39,409 nt of DNA, from UHGV virus genome UHGV-0098635; one strand, given 5' to 3'. Of the stretch, positions 3,704-37,429 are shown piece after piece (the stretch's first letter is position 1; every line of letters begins with the position of its first letter). Below the pieces are notes generated by a model that did no database searches, was not told the DNA's origin, and saw only the letters and a program-made list of their open reading frames with translations. Made by a program: the position numbers and the translations under genes. Origin of the DNA: a virus.

Positions 3704-4288
3704 TTATTGTTTGTTTTTTTCGTTCTGGTTGATGACAAATTCAATGTAACTTTCGATCTTTGCTTTCTCGGTTTCGGGTAACAATGCGTAGCGCGAGCGG
3801 TCATAGTTGATGGTCGCAGGGTCGTGCGGGTGAATCAGTAATTCATAGCCGTGACGCCCGAATGCGGATGCAACATTCTCCAGGGTGGAAATGGAAACGC
3901 TGACCTCATTGTTTAACAGGCGGCTGATTGTCACCTGGGCGACGCCGGATGCGCGGTGAAGTTTTCCCTGTGTTGAAAGGTCGCGGCTTTCGCTCATCCA
4001 GCGTTCCAGGTTGTGAGCCGCCAGCTGACCAATGTCGCTTGGGCCGACAGGCTGAAAACCTTCCTGAGAAAGCGAGCGATCGATATCAAGCCAGTTACGG
4101 GGTTTATTGGCGGCAGCTTCAATTTTTCGCGCAACCTGGTCGCCGATAACCTTCTTGCCAAGAGCCCAGCGGTTTACCAGATTTGCCTGAGTTCCAAGTT
4201 TTTCTGCCATCCGCGTCTGAACACCATTGAATTCACGGTCGATCAAGTCGTTGAGATTTTGCCTGCGGACGTCCTGGATACTTTTCAT
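3704..4288 (-). CDS. phage repressor, CI-like role, two HTH regions, no S24 peptidase domain
   Basis: 194-aa ORF divergent from a Cro-like gene. HTH-like segments at residues about 25-45 and 110-140. No Ser/Lys autoprotease motif (no GDSM-type segment). Confidence 0.7.
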   Translation of the reverse strand: MKSIQDVRRQNLNDLIDREFNGVQTRMAEKLGTQANLVNRWALGKKVIGDQVARKIEAAANKPRNWLDIDRSLSQEGFQPVGPSDIGQLAAHNLERWMSESRDLSTQGKLHRASGVAQVTISRLLNNEVSVSISTLENVASAFGRHGYELLIHPHDPATINYDRSRYALLPETEKAKIESYIEFVINQNEKNKQ

Positions 4289-10566: not shown

Positions 10567-10607
10567 GAGTAGATTATGCATGATGAATTTGATGGGTTTT
10601 GAATACT

Positions 10608-10634
10608 GCCGCCAACTATGGCGGCTTTATTTTG
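10608..10634 (+). terminator. rho-independent terminator upstream of terminase (tR'-like position)
   Basis: Stem GCCGCC / GGCGGC, loop AACTAT, followed by TTTATTTTG. Confidence 0.5.
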
Positions 10635-10676
10635 CATGGTACTATTACCACAACGGTAACTATTACCACGGTGGTT

Positions 10677-11273
10677 ATGATGCCTGCTGAACCTAAAACC
10701 TATAAACGCAAATCAACGCAATTTAAGCCACTAACAGCAATGCAGGAGGCTTATTGCCAGTCATACATCAAAACGCCTGAAAACCAGACTCAGGCAGCGA
10801 TTAACGCAGGATTCTCCCCAAATACAGCGGCAGTTAAAGCCAGTGTCATGATGCGCGATGAACGCATTCAAAAACGGATTGCCGAGTTGATGGAGGAGCG
10901 CAACAAACGAATGCGCGTCAGTGCTGATTACGTTCTCATGCGCCTGGTGGAGATCGACCAGATGGACGTGATCGATATCCTCAACGACGATGGGAGCCTT
11001 AAACCAATCCGTGAGTGGCCGAAAATCTGGCGCACTACGCTTAGTGGCTTTGATCTGTCATCGACCATCATGAACATGAACGAGGATTCGATAGAGACAA
11101 TCCTCAAAAAAATTAAATGGCCTGACAAGGTGAAGAACCTTGAGCTGATTGGTAAGCATGTTGATGTCAACGCGTTCAAAGAACGTCTGGATGTTAATGT
11201 GAATGTGACAATTGCTGATCGCATAGCAGCAGCCAGGAAGCGACTCAAAGAACGTCAGGATGGTAATCAGTGA
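10677..11273 (+). CDS. terminase small subunit
   Basis: Start ATG at 10677 or 10680; positioned directly upstream of the large subunit with a 4-nt overlap. Confidence 0.65.
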   Translation: MMPAEPKTYKRKSTQFKPLTAMQEAYCQSYIKTPENQTQAAINAGFSPNTAAVKASVMMRDERIQKRIAELMEERNKRMRVSADYVLMRLVEIDQMDVIDILNDDGSLKPIREWPKIWRTTLSGFDLSSTIMNMNEDSIETILKKIKWPDKVKNLELIGKHVDVNAFKERLDVNVNVTIADRIAAARKRLKERQDGNQ

Positions 11274-12745
11274 CAGATACCGTGTTATCTCCTGAAGAGC
11301 AGTTAATCGAGGATATTGCAGGGTTCACTCACGATCCGCTTGGTTATGCCCTCTATGCGTTCCCTTGGGGGGAAGAGGGGACTGAACTGGCACATGCTAC
11401 CGGCCCACGTCAGTGGCAGGCCGATGCGTTCCGAGAGATACGTGATCACCTGCAGAATCCAGAGACGCGCTATCAGCCGCTTATGCTGGCACGCGCTTCT
11501 GGTCACGGTATTGGTAAATCCGCATTCATCTCAATGCTGATCAACTGGGGCATGTCCACTTGCGAGGATTGTAAGGTCGTGGTGACCGCCAACACCGACA
11601 ACCAGCTACGAACGAAGACCTGGCCGGAAATTATCAAGTGGTCGAACCTTGCTATCACGAAAGACTGGTTTACCTGTACCGCTACCGCGATGTACAGCAA
11701 TGATCCTGGGCACGACAAGCGGTGGCGAGCTGACGCAATCCCCTGGTCTGAGCACAACACTGAGGCATTCGCCGGACTACACAACGAGCGCAAACGCATC
11801 ATCGTGGTATTCGATGAAGCGTCGAACATTGCGGATCTGGTGTGGGAAGTTGCTGAGGGTGCGCTTACGGACGAAGACACTGAGATTATCTGGGTGGCGT
11901 TCGGAAACCCTACACGTAACACCGGGCGTTTCCGCGAATGTTTCCGCAAATATAAACACCGCTGGAAAACTGCGCAGATTGACAGCCGGACGGTGGAAGG
12001 CACTAACAAACAGCAGTTGCAGAAATGGGTTGATGACTACGGGGAAGACAGCGACTTCGTTAAAATCCGTGTGCGCGGCATATTCCCTGATGCATCTGAA
12101 TTGCAGTTTATCCCTACCGGTCTTACTGATGAGGCAATGAAACGGGTGGTAACCGCTGCGCAGGTGGCGCATGCTCCGGTGATAATCGGTGTTGACCCGG
12201 CATATTCAGGCGTTGATGACGCGGTGATATACCTGCGGCAGGGGCTACACAGTAAGATGCTGTGGACTGGCAACAAGACCACTGACGATCTGATTATGGC
12301 GAAGCGTATCGCTGACTTTGAAGACCAGTATCAGGCTGACGCGGTGTTCATCGACTTCGGTTACGGAACCGGTTTGAAGTCAATCGGTGATGGCTGGGGG
12401 CGTACTTGGCAACTTGTTCCGTTCGGCGGCGCGTCTACTGACCCGCAGATGCTCAATAAGCGCGGGGAGATGTTCAACTCATGCAAGACATGGCTGAGGC
12501 TGGGCGGCATGCTGGATGACCAGGAAACAGCAGACGACCTGTCGGCGGCAGAGTACAAAGTTCGAGTGGACGGTAAAATCGTTATCGAACCGAAGGAAGA
12601 TATCAAGGAGCGGCTTGGGCGTTCACCGGGTAAAGGCGATGCGCTACTGCTGACGTTTGCGTTCCCTGTGTCGAAGCGTCTGCGAATTCCCGGGCAGCAG
12701 AACCAGCAAGGCAAGGCCATTACAGATTACGATCCCTATGCTTAG
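11270..12745 (+). CDS. terminase large subunit
   Basis: 491-aa ORF with an ATPase-like N-terminus and nuclease-like C-terminus, in the canonical position before the portal. Confidence 0.85.
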   Translation: MTDTVLSPEEQLIEDIAGFTHDPLGYALYAFPWGEEGTELAHATGPRQWQADAFREIRDHLQNPETRYQPLMLARASGHGIGKSAFISMLINWGMSTCEDCKVVVTANTDNQLRTKTWPEIIKWSNLAITKDWFTCTATAMYSNDPGHDKRWRADAIPWSEHNTEAFAGLHNERKRIIVVFDEASNIADLVWEVAEGALTDEDTEIIWVAFGNPTRNTGRFRECFRKYKHRWKTAQIDSRTVEGTNKQQLQKWVDDYGEDSDFVKIRVRGIFPDASELQFIPTGLTDEAMKRVVTAAQVAHAPVIIGVDPAYSGVDDAVIYLRQGLHSKMLWTGNKTTDDLIMAKRIADFEDQYQADAVFIDFGYGTGLKSIGDGWGRTWQLVPFGGASTDPQMLNKRGEMFNSCKTWLRLGGMLDDQETADDLSAAEYKVRVDGKIVIEPKEDIKERLGRSPGKGDALLLTFAFPVSKRLRIPGQQNQQGKAITDYDPYA

Positions 12746-13560
12746 TCTTTATTTTTATCCTCGAAACCTGATAATCCAGATAGAACACCAAAGTTATTAA
12801 AAACGTCTGGCTTACCAGATTTTAATCCGGATAAGTTGTGTTGCTCCAAAAAGTTGCTAATTGTTTGGCCGTTGCCAAGTGCAAGACTTTTTATTTGAGA
12901 TTTTTCAGGGTATTTGAGTTTGTATTCGTCGAAATCATTTTGGAGGGTCTTATATGCCTCATTCATTCTTCCCAGAGTTTCCGATATCTCTTTTAATGAA
13001 TGATTTAGAGCTGCTAACTGAGCACTGGCGGATCTCAATTCGTCATCTTTAGCTTTCAACTCGGCAGTCAATTCCCCCATACTATTCTTTGATCGAATAA
13101 TCTCTTCTTTCATCTCTTGGATGTCTTTTTCCGCGCCAGTCTTAACTTTGTCGTATGTAACATCTTTTTTAGCCAATAACCTCTGCAGTCTGGTTTCACG
13201 CTGGATTTTTCTTGCCTTCAGGTGATTTTCGATTGAGTCATTATTATCAAGAGGCTTTGCTTGCCATACGTTAATGATATTGTTTACCCATGGTAATAGG
13301 CAGCAGATAGCAATTACAGATAAGCATGGATAAAACATAACAGTTTTCCATGTGCTGTTATCTGAGATATATGAAATTTTATCTATTATGTTTGATTTGC
13401 TAAAAAATAGATAAAGAATTGATTTCCAGTTGAAGGCGCACCAGGACATAACAAAAGCACCAAGCACAGGGTTTTTGGCTCGATTCACGGCAGTATTGGC
13501 AGTAGATAAAAACAGCTCTTTGAAGGATTCAAACATGCTAATTACCTTGAAGTTTTTCAT
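12742..13560 (-). CDS. accessory membrane plus coiled-coil protein of unknown function
   Basis: AT-rich and opposite in strand to the flanking late genes. Start taken at 13560 (MKNFKV). Two hydrophobic segments and a long charged helical region. Uses AGA/AGG Arg codons. Confidence 0.6.
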   Translation of the reverse strand: MKNFKVISMFESFKELFLSTANTAVNRAKNPVLGAFVMSWCAFNWKSILYLFFSKSNIIDKISYISDNSTWKTVMFYPCLSVIAICCLLPWVNNIINVWQAKPLDNNDSIENHLKARKIQRETRLQRLLAKKDVTYDKVKTGAEKDIQEMKEEIIRSKNSMGELTAELKAKDDELRSASAQLAALNHSLKEISETLGRMNEAYKTLQNDFDEYKLKYPEKSQIKSLALGNGQTISNFLEQHNLSGLKSGKPDVFNNFGVLSGLSGFEDKNKD

Positions 13561-13564
13561 GATT

Positions 13565-13579
13565 ATACCTTTAAGGTAA
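13565..13579 (-). promoter_or_regulatory. operator-like palindrome abutting the accessory gene start
   Basis: Minus-strand TTACCTTAAAGGTAT followed by AATC and the ATG. Confidence 0.5.
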
Positions 13580-13595
13580 TTTGCGGTCATCAAGC

Positions 13596-13619
13596 AAAAA
13601 AATGCCCGGCGAACCGGGC
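13596..13619 (-). terminator. rho-independent terminator (second of two after the tRNA)
   Basis: Stem GCCCGG / CCGGGC, loop CGAA, followed on the minus strand by a T-run. Confidence 0.5.
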
Positions 13620-13696
13620 GAACTGGAAGCAATGAGTTATGCCTTCCGTGGCTGTACTGGTTTACAGCATGAAGTCATCGCAATGGCGTCCTGCTG

Positions 13697-13739
13697 TAAA
13701 AAGGGCGGTGATAGTCCTTCAAGGGAAACCATCACCGCC
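13697..13739 (-). terminator. rho-independent terminator after the tRNA
   Basis: 9-bp stem GGCGGTGAT / ATCACCGCC, followed on the minus strand by CTTTTT. Confidence 0.55.
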
Positions 13740-13782
13740 AAGCCCCTGGAACTTCTGGCATCACGGTCCTTAGGCGTGATTC

Positions 13783-13859
13783 TGGCGTGGCATGCAGGAT
13801 TCGAACCTGCGACCAACCGCTTAGAAGGCGGTTGCTCTGTCCAACTGAGCTAATGCCAC
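13783..13859 (-). tRNA. tRNA-Arg, anticodon UCU (reads AGA)
   Basis: Hand-folded 77-nt cloverleaf: 7-bp acceptor stem GTGGCAT/ATGCCAC, D-arm GCTC..GAGC, anticodon loop CTTCTAA, T-arm GCAGG-TTCGAAT-CCTGC, discriminator G, encoded CCA. Confidence 0.85.
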
Positions 13860-14181
13860 AACGCTGAGAGCACTTAGCCTGTTAAGGCACCACACTTTGT
13901 CGCGGCTCCATAAATGCTCTCATCGTTGTACCCTCGTCTCTTCCGAGGCGTCACACCGAATCGCCGGGATGGTGAATCCCCGTGCGCGGAATAAAACCGC
14001 TCGACTTGCACATTCCGGCTACCTGGTTCGTTTGCCCGAGCAAGGGAGGGTGCCCCTTAAACGTATCCAGACCGCTATCGTCGCATGTGCCATACGCCGT
14101 ACTGCTCAAAATAAAAGCTCACTCCACCTGTTCAATTTAACGACAAGCCAGTCAGGTTAGTAACCGGAATGAACTCTTTAG

Positions 14182-14258
14182 TTACCTGAAAGGTAATAAT
14201 TCGCGCGTTAAATGTCAACTGTCTACGATAAATAAATCATATGTGGTTAAATTGGTAA
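14182..14258 (+). promoter_or_regulatory. composite regulatory module upstream of the portal operon
   Basis: TTACCTGAAAGGTAA (14182-14196), CATATGTGGTT (14237-14247), GGTAAT half-site (14253-14258). Confidence 0.5.
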
Positions 14259-14286: not shown

Positions 14287-14493
14287 ATGTGCATGGGTAG
14301 CTCACCATCAGTGCCTGCAACACCAGAAGTTCAGGCAGCACCACAGGAGCAGGATGCCGCCGTTGTTGATGCCCGCGACGAAGAAACTCGTCGCCGTCGC
14401 GCTGCTGCTGGTCGTAGTTCTACGCTGCTTACCGGTTCTCAGGGCGACACATCAACCGCTAATACCAGCGGTAAAACGCTGCTTGGTCAGTAA
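14287..14493 (+). CDS. small hypothetical protein upstream of the portal
   Basis: 68-aa ORF, Ala/Ser/Thr/Gln-rich; its initiation region GGAGTCATTGATATG is nearly duplicated at the portal start. Confidence 0.4.
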   Translation: MCMGSSPSVPATPEVQAAPQEQDAAVVDARDEETRRRRAAAGRSSTLLTGSQGDTSTANTSGKTLLGQ

Positions 14494-14507: not shown

Positions 14508-16187
14508 ATGGCGGAAACAACTAAAGAGCGATTGAACAAACAGTTCGCACAACTTGAAAGCGAGCGTCAGTCGTTCGAGCCGCACTGGCGCGAGTTGAGT
14601 GATTACATCAACCCGCGTGGTTCCCGCTTTCTGACTTCTGAGGTCAACCGTAACGATCGACGCAATACACGCATTATTGATTCGACCGGGACTATGGCGG
14701 CGCGCACTCTCGCCAGCGGCATGATGTCAGGCATCACAAGCCCCGCGCGTCCGTGGTTTCGCTTGGCTACGCCAGATCCTGAAATGATGGATTATGGCCC
14801 TGTTAAGTTGTGGCTTGAGGCGGTGCAGAACCGCATGAACGATATGTTCAATAAGTCGAATCTCTATCAGTCGCTGCCGCAGTTATACGGAAGCCTCGGC
14901 ACATACAGCACTGGTGCAATGGCAGTGCTGGAGGATGACGAGGACATCATTCGCACAATGCCATTCCCGATAGGCAGTTACTACCTGGCTAACTCACCTC
15001 GTGGCAGTGTGGACACCTGTTTTCGCAAGTTCTCTATGACTGTTCGTCAGCTTGTTCAGGAGTTCGGGCTAAATAACGTCAGCGAATCCGTAAAAAGCAT
15101 GTGGGAAAGCGGCACCTACGAGAAGTGGATTGAAGTGATGCATTCGGTTTACCCGAACATTGACCGCGATACATCGAAGCTGGATAGCAAGAACAAGCCA
15201 TTCAAATCGGTTTATTACGAGGTTGGTGGCGATAACGACAAGTTGTTGCGTGAGTCCGGATTCGATGAGTTTCCAATTATGGCTCCGCGCTGGGAAGTTA
15301 ACGGCGAAGATGTTTATGGATCATCATGCCCGGGTATGCTGGCGCTTGGACCTGTTAAGGCATTGCAGCTTCTCCAGAAGCGCAAGTCGCAGTTGATTGA
15401 TAAAGCCACCAATCCGCCGATGGTTGCTCCGACTTCCCTCAAGAATCAGCGCGCCTCCCTTCTTCCTGGCGACATCACGTATATCGATCAGATTACTGGT
15501 CAGGATGGCTTCAGGCCTGCTTATCTGGTTAACCCCAGTACAGCAGATTTGGTGGCAGACATTCAGGACACTCGTCAAATCATTAACAGCGCCTACTTTG
15601 TCGATCTGTTCATGATGTTGCAGAACATCAATACCCGCTCGATGCCTGTTGAAGCGGTGATCGAAATGAAAGAAGAAAAACTTCTGATGTTGGGGCCGGT
15701 TCTGGAGCGTCTGAACGACGAATGTCTTAATCCTCTCATTGACCGCGCTTTCTCGATGATGGTGCGTAAAAACACGCTGCCGCCACCGCCTGACGCGATG
15801 GAAGGCATGCCCCTGAAGGTCGAATACATTTCCGTCATGGCTCAGGCGCAGAAGTCTATCGGCCTGTCCAGTCTGGCGTCCACGGTTAACTTCATTGGTC
15901 AACTTGCGCAAGCGAAACCAGAAGCTCTCGACAAACTCAACGTTGATCAGGCGATCGATGCATTCGCTGATATGTCCGGAGTGTCTCCAACCGTCATTGT
16001 TCCGCAGGAACAGGTTGAGCATGCTCGCCAGCAACGGGCACAGCAGCAACAGCAGCAACAAATGATGGCGATGGGGATGGCGGCGGCACAGGGTGCCAAG
16101 ACGCTAAGCGAAGCTAAAACTTCGGATCCGAGTGTTTTGTCAGCTATGGCGAATGCAGTTAGTGGTCAGGGTGGGCAATCACAATGA
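14508..16187 (+). CDS. portal protein, T7 gp8-like head-to-tail connector
   Basis: 559-aa ORF after terminase; the C-terminal Gln/Ala/Met-rich tail (QQQQQQQMMAMGMAAAQGA) resembles the T7 gp8 C-terminus (recalled). Confidence 0.8.
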   Translation: MAETTKERLNKQFAQLESERQSFEPHWRELSDYINPRGSRFLTSEVNRNDRRNTRIIDSTGTMAARTLASGMMSGITSPARPWFRLATPDPEMMDYGPVKLWLEAVQNRMNDMFNKSNLYQSLPQLYGSLGTYSTGAMAVLEDDEDIIRTMPFPIGSYYLANSPRGSVDTCFRKFSMTVRQLVQEFGLNNVSESVKSMWESGTYEKWIEVMHSVYPNIDRDTSKLDSKNKPFKSVYYEVGGDNDKLLRESGFDEFPIMAPRWEVNGEDVYGSSCPGMLALGPVKALQLLQKRKSQLIDKATNPPMVAPTSLKNQRASLLPGDITYIDQITGQDGFRPAYLVNPSTADLVADIQDTRQIINSAYFVDLFMMLQNINTRSMPVEAVIEMKEEKLLMLGPVLERLNDECLNPLIDRAFSMMVRKNTLPPPPDAMEGMPLKVEYISVMAQAQKSIGLSSLASTVNFIGQLAQAKPEALDKLNVDQAIDAFADMSGVSPTVIVPQEQVEHARQQRAQQQQQQQMMAMGMAAAQGAKTLSEAKTSDPSVLSAMANAVSGQGGQSQ

Positions 16188-30951: not shown

Positions 30952-31464
30952 CTATGCAGGCTTTTTGGATTTGTACGAATAATCCCACGGATAAACATTT
31001 CTACTAAGCGGAGCTGTATTCGTTCGTTCATGAAATAATTTTGTGAAATTCAATACGGAATCCATCCAAACTTTTGCGTTAGCTTTGGTGTGTGCGGGCG
31101 GGTCCCAATAAGCTAGTAAGGCTGCATCTCTTATTTCATTGACTGCATATATGAGATATGCGTTACTGGTTGGTTTTGGCCTGTAATTTCCTTGTTCATC
31201 AATCAATCCATATGACCACTCATCCCAACACTGTTCAGTACATGAGTATGAATATGATGCATATTCACCAATATTGACATGAACCTTTCTGAGATGGAAA
31301 CCTAATACTTCGTCTGGTCTTTCAAAAAGAGTATCTTTTCCCAGATCAGGATGATGACCATGACGCCAGTGTTGTTTAAAAGCATCTTTTAGCGAAATCA
31401 GAAAGTCATCAGTTTTAAACTCACCAGTAGGTATAACCTTCCCGCTATACTCACTCAAAAACAT
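30952..31464 (-). CDS. candidate toxin (weak YafO-like resemblance) of a two-gene accessory module
   Basis: 170-aa ORF overlapping the upstream gene by 14 nt; the segment GKDTLFERPDEVLGFHLRKVHVNI loosely resembles the YafO core FGRDALYD...KFERVAHIHL (recalled). Confidence 0.5.
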   Translation of the reverse strand: MFLSEYSGKVIPTGEFKTDDFLISLKDAFKQHWRHGHHPDLGKDTLFERPDEVLGFHLRKVHVNIGEYASYSYSCTEQCWDEWSYGLIDEQGNYRPKPTSNAYLIYAVNEIRDAALLAYWDPPAHTKANAKVWMDSVLNFTKLFHERTNTAPLSRNVYPWDYSYKSKKPA

Positions 31465-31777
31465 CGAATTCCTCTTCCTTCATATGCGTTTCTAATGAGT
31501 TAAGCTGGCGGAAAGATATCTCTTTTGATTCTGCAGATGAGAGCTTTTTTATCCGCTTTATATTCTTTGTGATAGGAATAGTCATTGTATGCACATCAGC
31601 GGATGCTCTTGGCTTTGTGCTGATAAAAATATGGCGCAATGCCGCATTTTCACTATTGAACGAGCCAATAGCTGATTTACGTGCTACAACCTTACCAGTA
31701 AAAATACGACTCTTGCTACGCTTTGCATGAGTTCCGCTTCTTACCGGACCTCTCATCACGAATCCAAGTTTTGTCAT
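31451..31777 (-). CDS. basic small protein, candidate antitoxin/partner
   Basis: 108-aa basic ORF, first gene of the operon, with GGAG RBS and an operator palindrome about 45 nt upstream. Confidence 0.5.
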   Translation of the reverse strand: MTKLGFVMRGPVRSGTHAKRSKSRIFTGKVVARKSAIGSFNSENAALRHIFISTKPRASADVHTMTIPITKNIKRIKKLSSAESKEISFRQLNSLETHMKEEEFDVFE

Positions 31778-35622: not shown

Positions 35623-36036
35623 GTGGTTTTTATGTCAGTTCAGATAACCAGTGAGTCTTTAAATCAGTGGCTTAGCATGAGTTCTCTGGTGGCGGTTATA
35701 GCAGGAGCACCTCCTGAGGTTGCTTTGGGGTCTTTGGCTGGAGCGGTTATTTTTGTTACCTCTGCAGTAGAGTATCCCATTCGTCGTCGCGTACTCTTGT
35801 CGATGCTTAGCTTTCTCTGCGGACTTCTTTTCTACAAACCAGCAGCATCAATTCTTATCGGCATAGCCAGCCTGATCCCTACAATTACGCAGGACTCGTT
35901 TGAGAAAGGGATTGTTTTCTCTGCTGGTGCATTCGTGTCAGCAATCGTCGCAGTTCGAATTGGAATCTGGCTCTATCACCGTTCCGATAATCCACGCGAG
36001 TTAATTCCGGGGAGAAAAGACGATGGTAACGCATGA
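35623..36036 (+). CDS. holin-like membrane protein
   Basis: Multiple hydrophobic segments; possible dual start GTG 35623 / ATG 35632 (M-V-F-M); sits directly upstream of the endolysin. Confidence 0.5.
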   Translation: MVFMSVQITSESLNQWLSMSSLVAVIAGAPPEVALGSLAGAVIFVTSAVEYPIRRRVLLSMLSFLCGLLFYKPAASILIGIASLIPTITQDSFEKGIVFSAGAFVSAIVAVRIGIWLYHRSDNPRELIPGRKDDGNA

Positions 36037-36331
36037 GTTTTTTTTGCTTATCACCAATGCAGTTATTTGCACTGGCATAGCAATTCGCGTTGTCACATTC
36101 CGGCGTAACGGCTCTCAACACCGAAGGTGGGGAGGATGGCTTGCTTATTTCCTGATTGTTGCTGCGGCCAGTATTCCTGTTCGTGTCGCCTATGCAATCT
36201 GGTTACGTACGCCAATGGCTGTGGATTTATCTGAGGTCATTATCAACGCTGTCATGCTAGCTGCGGTTATTAAAACTCGCGGTAACGTTGTTCAGATTTT
36301 CAAAATAACGAGGTCTAAACATGGAGATTAA
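36023..36331 (+). CDS. second lysis-cassette membrane protein (holin/antiholin-like)
   Basis: 102-aa ORF with three hydrophobic segments, overlapping both neighbours. Confidence 0.45.
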
Positions 36332-36950
36332 ACAATTCCAACGAGCTGCTGGTATTAGCGAGGCGCTGGCCGCACGCTGGTTCTCGCATATAACTTCTGC
36401 GATGAAAGAGTTTGATATCAGCAAACCAGAAGATCAGGCAATGTTTATTGCTCAGGTCGGGCATGAGTCTGGAGGCTTCACCCGGTTGCAGGAAAATTTC
36501 AACTACAGCGTCAGCGGACTGGCGAGCTTTGTCAGGACTGGACGCCTCACCCAGGGACAGGCTAATGCACTGGGGCGCCGTGCTGGTGAACCACCATTGC
36601 CACTTGAGCGCCAGCGCGCGATCGCAAATCTGGTTTACAGCAAACGCATGGGTAACAATGCTCCCGGCGATGGCTGGAATTACCGTGGGCGCGGGCTTAT
36701 CCAGATTACCGGTTTGAATAACTATCGTGACTGCGGAAACGGTCTGAAAGTTGACCTGCTGGAGAATCCTGAACTGCTGGCGCAGGACGAATACGCGGCT
36801 CGTAGCGCGGCGTGGTTCTTTGCCAGCAAAGGATGCATGAAGTATACCGGTGATATTGCACGTGTAACTCTGATTATCAATGGTGGCCGGAACGGCATCG
36901 ACGACCGGCGCGCGCGGTACGTCACTGCCAGTAAGGTGCTGGCTATATGA
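36321..36950 (+). CDS. endolysin, glycoside hydrolase family 19 (chitinase class I-like)
   Basis: 209-aa ORF with [11 protein letters not shown] and GRGLIQITG motifs. Confidence 0.8.
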
Positions 36951-37429
36951 TCTGGGCATTCGTAAAAGCATATTGGAAACAACTGATTATCGTGGTGATG
37001 CTTGCTGCTCTGTTCATCGTCGGAGTGGTTGTCTGGAATATACACGGCAGTCGCCAGTACGATGCCGGGTATGCGCAGGCGGAAGAAGATCGCAAAGACG
37101 AAGAAGACAAAGTTCGTCAGTACTACGAACAGGAGAAAGTGACCAATGAACGTGAAGCGCAGCAGAGAATCGACCAGGCGCGCAATGATGCTCTTGATGC
37201 TGCCGCTCGCGCTGGCAGGTTGCAGCAACAACTCTTTGCCATCCGTGAGCAGCTCAGGCAGTATAACGCCATTGTCGGCGCTGGGACGTCAGCCGCAGAC
37301 ACCGGAGTTTTGCTTGCCGACGTGCTCAGCAAATCTCTCGAGAGAAACAGACAACTGGCAGAGTATGCTGACCGGGCAGCCGAAGCCGGAAGAGTCTGCG
37401 AAAAACAGTATGACACCCTGACAAGATAG
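36947..37429 (+). CDS. i-spanin (Rz-like)
   Basis: N-terminal transmembrane segment then a charged coiled-coil; follows the endolysin with ATGA overlap. Confidence 0.7.
37146..37421 (+). CDS. o-spanin (Rz1-like), embedded in the +1 frame of Rz
   Basis: Signal peptide with lipobox LALAGC and a Pro/Ser-rich mature part; the likely real start is the ATG at 37185. Confidence 0.6.
   Translation: MNVKRSRESTRRAMMLLMLPLALAGCSNNSLPSVSSSGSITPLSALGRQPQTPEFCLPTCSANLSRETDNWQSMLTGQPKPEESAKNSMTP

Follow-up and report, generated by a model that had tools for sequence, protein, structure and literature searches.

The DNA analysed here is a stretch of 39,409 nucleotides (nt) filed as UHGV virus genome UHGV-0098635 (the window, that is, this stretch at its full length), which is an epsilon15/phiV10-like podovirus prophage of Escherichia coli (genus Uetakevirus), an identical copy of which adjoins guaA in E. 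coli chromosomes. Between the genes for the large terminase (terL) and the portal lies a minus-strand gene, here called the cargo gene, whose product belongs to PHROG 4780 and whose open reading frame (ORF) is AT-rich (GC 36.9% against 48.5% for the window). An earlier reading of the sequence alone (the sequence-only reading) had treated this gene, together with a nearby transfer RNA (tRNA) gene and two terminators, as one island and had proposed superinfection exclusion or abortive infection as its function. The flanks of the locus are ~98% identical to those of phiV10, the O157 typing phages 9/10, ZX5 and others, and terL (annotated as terminase in RefSeq and phiV10) is 97–99% identical across E. 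coli Uetakevirus loci. We find that the cargo gene occupies a slot whose content is exchanged between such near-identical phages; this status and the anatomy described below are well supported, and we give them high confidence. The features of the locus are as follows, with lengths of proteins in amino acids (aa).

10599–11273, plus strand: terS (from the ORF list)
11270–12745, plus strand: terL, large terminase, 491 aa, the left boundary of the cargo slot
12742–13560, minus strand: ORF as first read, 272 aa (from the ORF list)
12742–13536, minus strand: cargo gene from its conserved start, 264 aa, PHROG 4780
13056–12745, minus strand: hypervariable tail (residues 161–264), exchanged wholesale between alleles
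13536–13057, minus strand: conserved module (residues 1–160), that is, an N-terminal helix, a first transmembrane segment (TM1, ~23–45), a short loop and a second one (TM2, ~63–92) that runs on as a helix
13537–13560, minus strand: in-frame extension of 8 codons (MKNFKVIS), absent from nearly all homologues
13562–13590, minus strand: predicted sigma-70-type promoter, with −35 ATGACC (13590–13585), a 17-nt spacer and −10 TATAAT (13567–13562)
13564–13580: epsilon15-type repressor operator, minus strand ATTACC-TTAAA-GGTATA, 10/12 to ATTACC-N5-GGTAAT
13619–13596, minus strand: terminator T2, with stem 13619–13604 (GCCCGG-UUCG-CCGGGC), then A and U7
13620–13703, minus strand: noncoding stretch of ~85 nt between the terminators, with a hairpin at 13661–13700
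13739–13704, minus strand: terminator T1, 14-bp stem, immediately downstream of the tRNA gene
13783–13859, minus strand: tRNA-Arg, anticodon UCU (ARAGORN, tct; Rfam RF00005)
14287–14493, plus strand: gp3, 68 aa, right-hand context
14508–16187, plus strand: portal, 559 aa (PF12236, E 5e-187)

gp3 served as the anchor for 80 E. coli Uetakevirus loci, whose terL–gp3 intervals we then compared; 79 loci could be typed, and one representative of each type was scanned. The slot extends from T2, its right boundary, to the end of terL, and its content varies among phages with ~98% identical flanks, at least six alternative cargos or none being found there.

36 loci, plus one in tandem: PF13876 gene (N4 gp49/Sf6 gp66 family)
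17 loci: cargo family (PHROG 4780), alleles of 201–296 aa
12 loci, plus 2 truncated: 140-aa protein, PHROG 4846
3 loci: 115-aa protein, PHROG 3163
2 loci: Tad2-like (anti-Thoeris) protein (PF11195, E 3.2e-24)
1 locus: 110-aa protein, PHROG 27507
6 loci: empty

What phiV10-type phages have in common with the window comprises the end of terL and all the sequence to the right from T2 on; the cargo ORF is missing from them, and the phiV10 slot itself holds a different minus-strand gene. What the sequence-only reading described as an insert between terL and portal thus holds as regards the gene, which is accessory and variably present; the tRNA and the terminators are instead part of the backbone, and the terL–portal interval also contains gp3 and a regulatory region of ~430 nt. 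The same slot of a distant epsilon15-like prophage, with a terL of 73% identity, holds a 35% identical allele, indicating that the association of family and slot is old. All other slot cargos begin directly after T2 with GCCCGGTTCGCCGGGCATTTTTTT-AAGGTGAGATT-ATG (the ribosome-binding site lies there) and have no promoter of their own; the cargo family alone brings one.

The commonest occupant matches the PF13876 model at E 2e-35, and as PF13876 is the Acb4 family of anti-CBASS sponges (bioRxiv 10.1101/2024.12.30.630793; also 10.1101/2025.07.12.664507), the slot holds members of known counter-defence families in most sister phages. This raises the alternative that the cargo protein, made at infection or induction, serves counter-defence or host takeover to the benefit of the phage (for example, by neutralizing a membrane-acting immune effector or sensor of the host, the variable tail fitting diverse host targets). 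The presence of Acb4-family and Tad2-like genes as slot-mates speaks for such a role, as does the retention of the gene in one slot across the deep divergence just described, whereas the possession of its own promoter sets it against the promoterless sponge genes. Taking these points with those given below, we consider counter-defence possible but somewhat less likely than defence.

The tRNA-Arg(UCU) that the sequence-only reading had placed on the minus strand between terminase and portal is borne out by ARAGORN and by an Rfam covariance scan (73.3 bits, E 1.8e-15, threshold 29). Its two consecutive terminators are likewise real by folding z-scores of −3.9 (T1) and −3.6 (T2); the stem pairing of T1 is maintained by compensatory changes even where its sequence has been replaced in other phages, and T2 shows compensatory stem pairs in related phages. 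That reading had further linked the tRNA to the gene, and a co-adapted unit in which the tRNA translates the AGA/AGG codons of the gene is an attractive idea, given that five of the eight arginine codons of the cargo gene are AGA or AGG (as had been claimed) and that the two genes are adjacent on the same strand. The distribution of the tRNA contradicts it. We find the tRNA in 79 of the 80 loci, and 62 of those 79 lack a cargo family gene, so that it is a backbone gene of E. coli Uetakeviruses and stands outside the cargo cassette; conversely, among loci anchored on the family, the tRNA is missing from the locus in 21 Uetakevirus carriers and in 10 of the 12 carriers that are phages of other types. 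Family genes without the tRNA still use these codons (for example, 13 of 17 arginine codons in locus L018), T1 separates the tRNA from a gene with a promoter of its own, and elsewhere the prophage contains 110 AGA/AGG codons. As 41 of these fall in two large internal virion proteins, the latter are more plausible clients of the tRNA than is the cargo gene. We therefore give the idea of a tRNA carried to serve the gene almost no credence, and regard it as wrong and now corrected.

Judged by its homologues, the cargo ORF is a real gene. The protein matches PHROG 4780 at E 2.3e-137 (residues 9–272 of the 272-aa reading on profile positions 1–267 of 275), a word-indexed search returned 177 relatives (all unnamed and from Enterobacteriaceae), and in an exhaustive profile search (hidden Markov model) 1784 clusters sharing the architecture scored E ≤ 1e-3, 313 of them reaching E ≤ 1e-10; residues R19, P23, W32, N36, W37, P70 and P82 are nearly invariant. 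The sequence-only reading had recognized no known family, and PHROG 4780, whose function is unknown, is still the only family matched: the cargo protein and 50 diverse relatives have no Pfam or NCBIfam family match (coiled-coil noise only), the Acb4 (PF13876) and Tad2 (PF11195) models do not match the cargo protein, and a PDB profile search and fold searches gave generic coiled coils only. With the C-terminal 84 residues as query, two fragments of the same protein were recovered and no other family sharing the tail, and a scan of genome contigs with an alignment of homologues yielded no confirmed relative.

The protein probably has 264 aa rather than the 272 of the first reading, whose ORF is present but would start too early. 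We place the start at Met9 (ATG 13536) because homologues begin with M[LF]ES (found at the N terminus of all homologues aligned), PHROG 4780 aligns from residue 9 and the promoter is too near ATG 13560. The site ATGACC-17-TATAAT is, by sequence prediction, the best promoter-like site of the region (10/12), and a −35 TGAC and a −10 TAnnnT stand at a constant distance from the start codon in every family carrier. Given that the −10 ends two bases before ATG 13560, that codon would lie outside a transcript from the predicted promoter, and 13537–13560 is probably an untranslated 5′ leader with a Shine–Dalgarno motif AAGG (13548–13545). The palindrome that had been described as abutting the start codon does abut ATG 13560, but the real start appears to be 13536 and what the palindrome overlaps is the −10. 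At its other end the gene lacks a terminator, the one weak terminator-like site lying inside the ORF at 12819–12806, and its stop codon overlaps that of the convergent terL, an arrangement that would fit expression while terL is silent.

As to the two membrane segments and long coiled coil ascribed to this protein beforehand, hydropathy shows two hydrophobic segments, and an AlphaFold2 model built with a diverse alignment (predicted local distance difference test score 83.8) contains an N-terminal helix, a kinked TM1 (23–45), a short loop helix and a continuous helix from 63 to 208. Nine lysine or arginine residues occur within the 33 residues after TM2, and by the positive-inside rule the stalk is predicted to be cytoplasmic; the N terminus would then also be cytoplasmic and lead into a two-helix membrane hairpin. 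The stalk, which continues TM2 for ~115 residues, probably forms a coiled-coil oligomer.

Among close relatives, mean pairwise identity is 78% over residues 1 to ~160 and 20% over the rest, with a sharp break at ~160, and 203 of the 277 pairs with >80% identity in the N-terminal part have <30% identity in the C-terminal part. As the terL and portal proteins of phages carrying different alleles are 97–99% identical, the partner of the tail is unlikely to be either of these two, which are the backbone parts that the comparison covered. A conserved module with a swapped tail points to a conflict function. The pattern also bears on the possibility that this is an accessory protein unrelated to conflict, that is, a membrane anchor for replication or assembly (as phi29 p16.7 is) or a modulator of lysis timing. 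A membrane anchor with a long stalk does resemble scaffolding and anchoring proteins, and repressor control (see below) would fit expression in the lytic cycle; yet 62 of 79 sister phages lack the gene, its tail differs completely between phages with ~98–99% identical terL and portal, and the lysis cassette is complete elsewhere. Because both presence and tail are variable, a housekeeping role is unlikely, and we regard a non-conflict function as improbable. A lysis role in particular was rejected, as no lysis PHROG matched and the cassette at 35623–37429 comprises two holins, an endolysin and an Rz-like spanin; the remote-homology and structure predictions called for by the sequence-only reading likewise matched no lysis protein.

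The palindrome upstream of the gene, TACCTTTAAGGTA (13566–13578), had been called operator-like, and this is supported by its match to the epsilon15-type repressor consensus and by its enrichment, 10 copies with at most 2 mismatches being found in the window where 1.1 are expected. The consensus ATTACC-N5-GGTAAT is annotated as ‘repressor; lysogeny’ at 7 sites in the epsilon15 record (GenBank AY150271), and the window contains about a dozen such sites, including that of the cargo gene.

3704–4288, minus strand: repressor gene, homologous to the SPC32H repressor (PDB 5d50, E 4e-42)
3569, 3631 and 4343: operators beside the repressor gene
6674 and 6736: operators within the early region
10644: operator at terS
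13564: operator over the cargo promoter
14181–14197: operator upstream of gp3, GTTACCTGAAAGGTAAT
14181–14218: divergent control region, that is, the operator GTTACCTGAAAGGTAAT with a leftward −35 TTGACA (14218–14213)
31819 and 32834: further operators
33214: operator upstream of the tailspike gene

Operator sites precede most transcription units, including those of terS, gp3/portal and the tailspike gene. This distribution suggests direct control of early, late and accessory units by a single repressor. From the sequence alone, the cargo gene would be expected to be at least partly repressed in the lysogen and fully expressed upon infection or induction. The leftward −35 at 14218–14213 could drive a leader, the tRNA and the cargo arm. 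Relatives in E. coli, Salmonella and Klebsiella, like epsilon15, keep the TTGACA beside this operator, so that the repressor regulon may take in the entire tRNA/cargo arm; the epsilon15 record annotates repressor and integration host factor sites at the equivalent place. For counter-defence this is a further point in favour, since the cargo promoter and the putative leftward promoter both have operators and the whole arm should fire without the repressor. Carriers of the family outside Uetakeviruses mostly keep 9–10 of the 12 operator positions, though they have no other such operator within 12 kb. Decay of the operator outside Uetakeviruses was considered and rejected as a general idea; it holds for KO-TP1 only.

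Beyond the slot, the family is also carried by lambdoid phages, namely KO-TP1, ST11-VIM1phi8.2 and several IMG/VR contigs; there the gene has replication genes on one side and ninB on the other and runs on the opposite strand. A C-terminal fragment of terL stands beside the cargo gene in many of these copies and in other non-Uetakevirus carriers (5815–5970 in L003, 6795–7028 in L041, 6804–7217 in L053, 6742–7158 in L062, and also in L055/L056), from which we conclude that the cassette was copied out of the Uetakevirus slot. Of three distant relatives that we sampled, one belongs to a plasmid-prophage-like element, and the others are lone genes or islets in bacterial chromosomes. In L087 (6001–6717), which represents a different podovirus type, a family member has scaffold-like genes on one side and capsid-like genes on the other and is co-directional with them.

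Taken together, a role in phage–host conflict is likely, be it in defence or in counter-defence. Our favoured reading, which we consider quite possible and put forward tentatively, is that the cargo protein works by a defence or exclusion mechanism, acting as a single protein in exclusion or abortive infection. Its variable tip in the cytoplasm would recognize a component of an incoming or competing phage, upon which the conserved membrane module would act at the inner membrane and either block entry of the genome or permeabilize the membrane. In the lysogen, the repressor would lower expression through the imperfect 10/12 operator, whereas expression would be full without repressor; the tRNA-Arg(UCU) would be outside the system. 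Defence is favoured by the conserved module with its variable tail, the gene’s own promoter, its terminator-less convergent overlap with terL, the lone chromosomal homologues and the moron-like, opposite-strand placement in lambdoids. Some of these features tell directly against counter-defence: the sampled distant homologues include lone chromosomal genes outside recognizable phages, and defence sensors are the better-known setting for a conserved module joined to a variable tail. We also know of no characterized counter-defence protein with the membrane architecture of the cargo protein, and count this against that alternative.

Several observations weigh against defence, and the superinfection-exclusion or abortive-infection proposal of the sequence-only reading accordingly survives only in part: the gene is accessory, has its own promoter and encodes a protein predicted to be membrane-anchored, but there is an operator over the −10, its slot-mates include counter-defence genes and no defence model matches. 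The operator at 13564–13580 covers part of the spacer as well as the −10, and the cargo gene may be silent in the lysogen. With Acb4 as its commonest cargo family and a Tad2-like protein as another, the slot looks like a counter-defence locus. In PADLOC-DB 2.0 the protein has weak matches only (best 3.2e-5), to the coiled-coil arms of DndD, PbeC, LmuB and JetC over residues ~92–258, and 50 diverse members of the family give the same weak coiled-coil matches only. Homology to lambda SieB was rejected (hhalign of the diverse family profile, probability 2.2%), and a Pfam scan gave no SieB match. Literature searches for the family, its accessions and the slot genes found nothing on the cargo protein and no phenotype, and the topology, oligomerization and repressor binding invoked here are ones that we infer.

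Some features of the backbone call for separate mention. The noncoding stretch between T1 and T2 is kept in E. coli, Salmonella, Klebsiella and Enterobacter Uetakeviruses regardless of cargo, and also in the lambdoid copies of the cassette. Its hairpin at 13661–13700 has a nearly invariant 16-nt core, ACGCCATTGCGATGAC, which is identical in six of six aligned loci and shows single-base variants in a few loci; one covarying pair was found, and the folding z-score is −1.6. An Rfam scan of the stretch gave no match, and a search by eye for a sigma-70 promoter found none convincing. It may act as a small RNA, as a signal for processing or antitermination, or as a DNA site. The idea that it travels with the cargo gene for functional reasons was rejected, as the terL 3′ fragment is copied along with it and the stretch also lies 5′ of unrelated cargos. 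Between the putative leftward promoter and the tRNA, ~320 nt (13860–14180) are conserved with phiV10-type phages and contain no convincing ORF. A plus-strand ORF of 90 codons (13581–13853) runs antisense through the tRNA and terminators and matches hypothetical coding sequences in phiV10 (p04), EC.W1-9 and others; it is almost certainly spurious. In addition, 64 Synechococcus phage records match a 1.9-kb query at 80–90% identity, presumably in the tRNA segment only.

A second accessory patch lies on the minus strand at 30952–31777, 3′ of the internal virion protein genes. It encodes a 170-aa protein (PHROG 1651) with a sub-threshold match to YafO toxin (E 9.5e-4) and, upstream, a 108-aa partner; at the equivalent position of a related prophage (NZ_CP048107), a YafO-family toxin is annotated.

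These results bear on the genus as well as on the single gene. The interval between terL and the tRNA of epsilon15/phiV10-like phages is a cargo hotspot with two families of immune-signal sponges, and the presence of these families makes PHROGs 4846, 3163 and 27507, together with PHROG 4780, candidates for phage–host conflict functions. Should the cargo protein turn out to act in defence or counter-defence, the factors known would gain a widespread single-gene family that combines a membrane hairpin with a long stalk and a swappable tip, an unusual layout that suits specificity-swap experiments. That PHROG 4780 and its distant relatives form a new single-protein, membrane-anchored immune or counter-immune module, with an exchangeable tip that sets specificity and a mechanism unrelated to those of described proteins, is possible, although we would not lean on it heavily.

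Among known systems, the early membrane protein p16.7 of phi29 resembles the cargo protein in having an N-terminal membrane anchor followed by a coiled coil, but it has a single transmembrane segment and a conserved DNA-binding C-terminal domain where the cargo protein has a hypervariable tail. The morons of lambdoid phages share with the cargo gene the possession of their own promoter, a deviant GC content, presence or absence among close relatives (17 of 79 loci here) and, in the lambdoid carriers, placement on the opposite strand; the cargo gene differs in that it has no terminator of its own, its stop overlaps that of terL and its promoter apparently belongs to the repressor regulon. The Acb4 (PF13876) and Tad2 (PF11195) genes occupy the same slot in sister phages, between T2 and terL on the minus strand, yet these sponges are small and soluble and have no promoter of their own, and the cargo protein is dissimilar to them and predicted to be membrane-anchored. 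Closer in kind are SieB (lambda/P22), SieA (P22), T4 Imm and HK97 gp15, which are small phage inner-membrane proteins encoded by single accessory genes with their own expression signals and which block other phages, although the cargo protein has no sequence relationship to them (judged by hhalign against lambda SieB and by Pfam) and is set apart by its ~115-residue cytoplasmic stalk, its hypervariable tail and the operator on its promoter. In contrast to CapRel and Avs, single-protein defence systems that pair a conserved effector with a hypervariable sensor, and to the two-transmembrane effectors of CBASS (cyclic-oligonucleotide-based antiphage signalling system), Pycsar and retron systems, it has no recognizable enzymatic or nucleotide-sensing domain and no PADLOC match; the likeness to these systems is architectural only and consists in the pairing of a conserved module with an exchanged one and in an N-terminal two-helix membrane element that may act as the effector.

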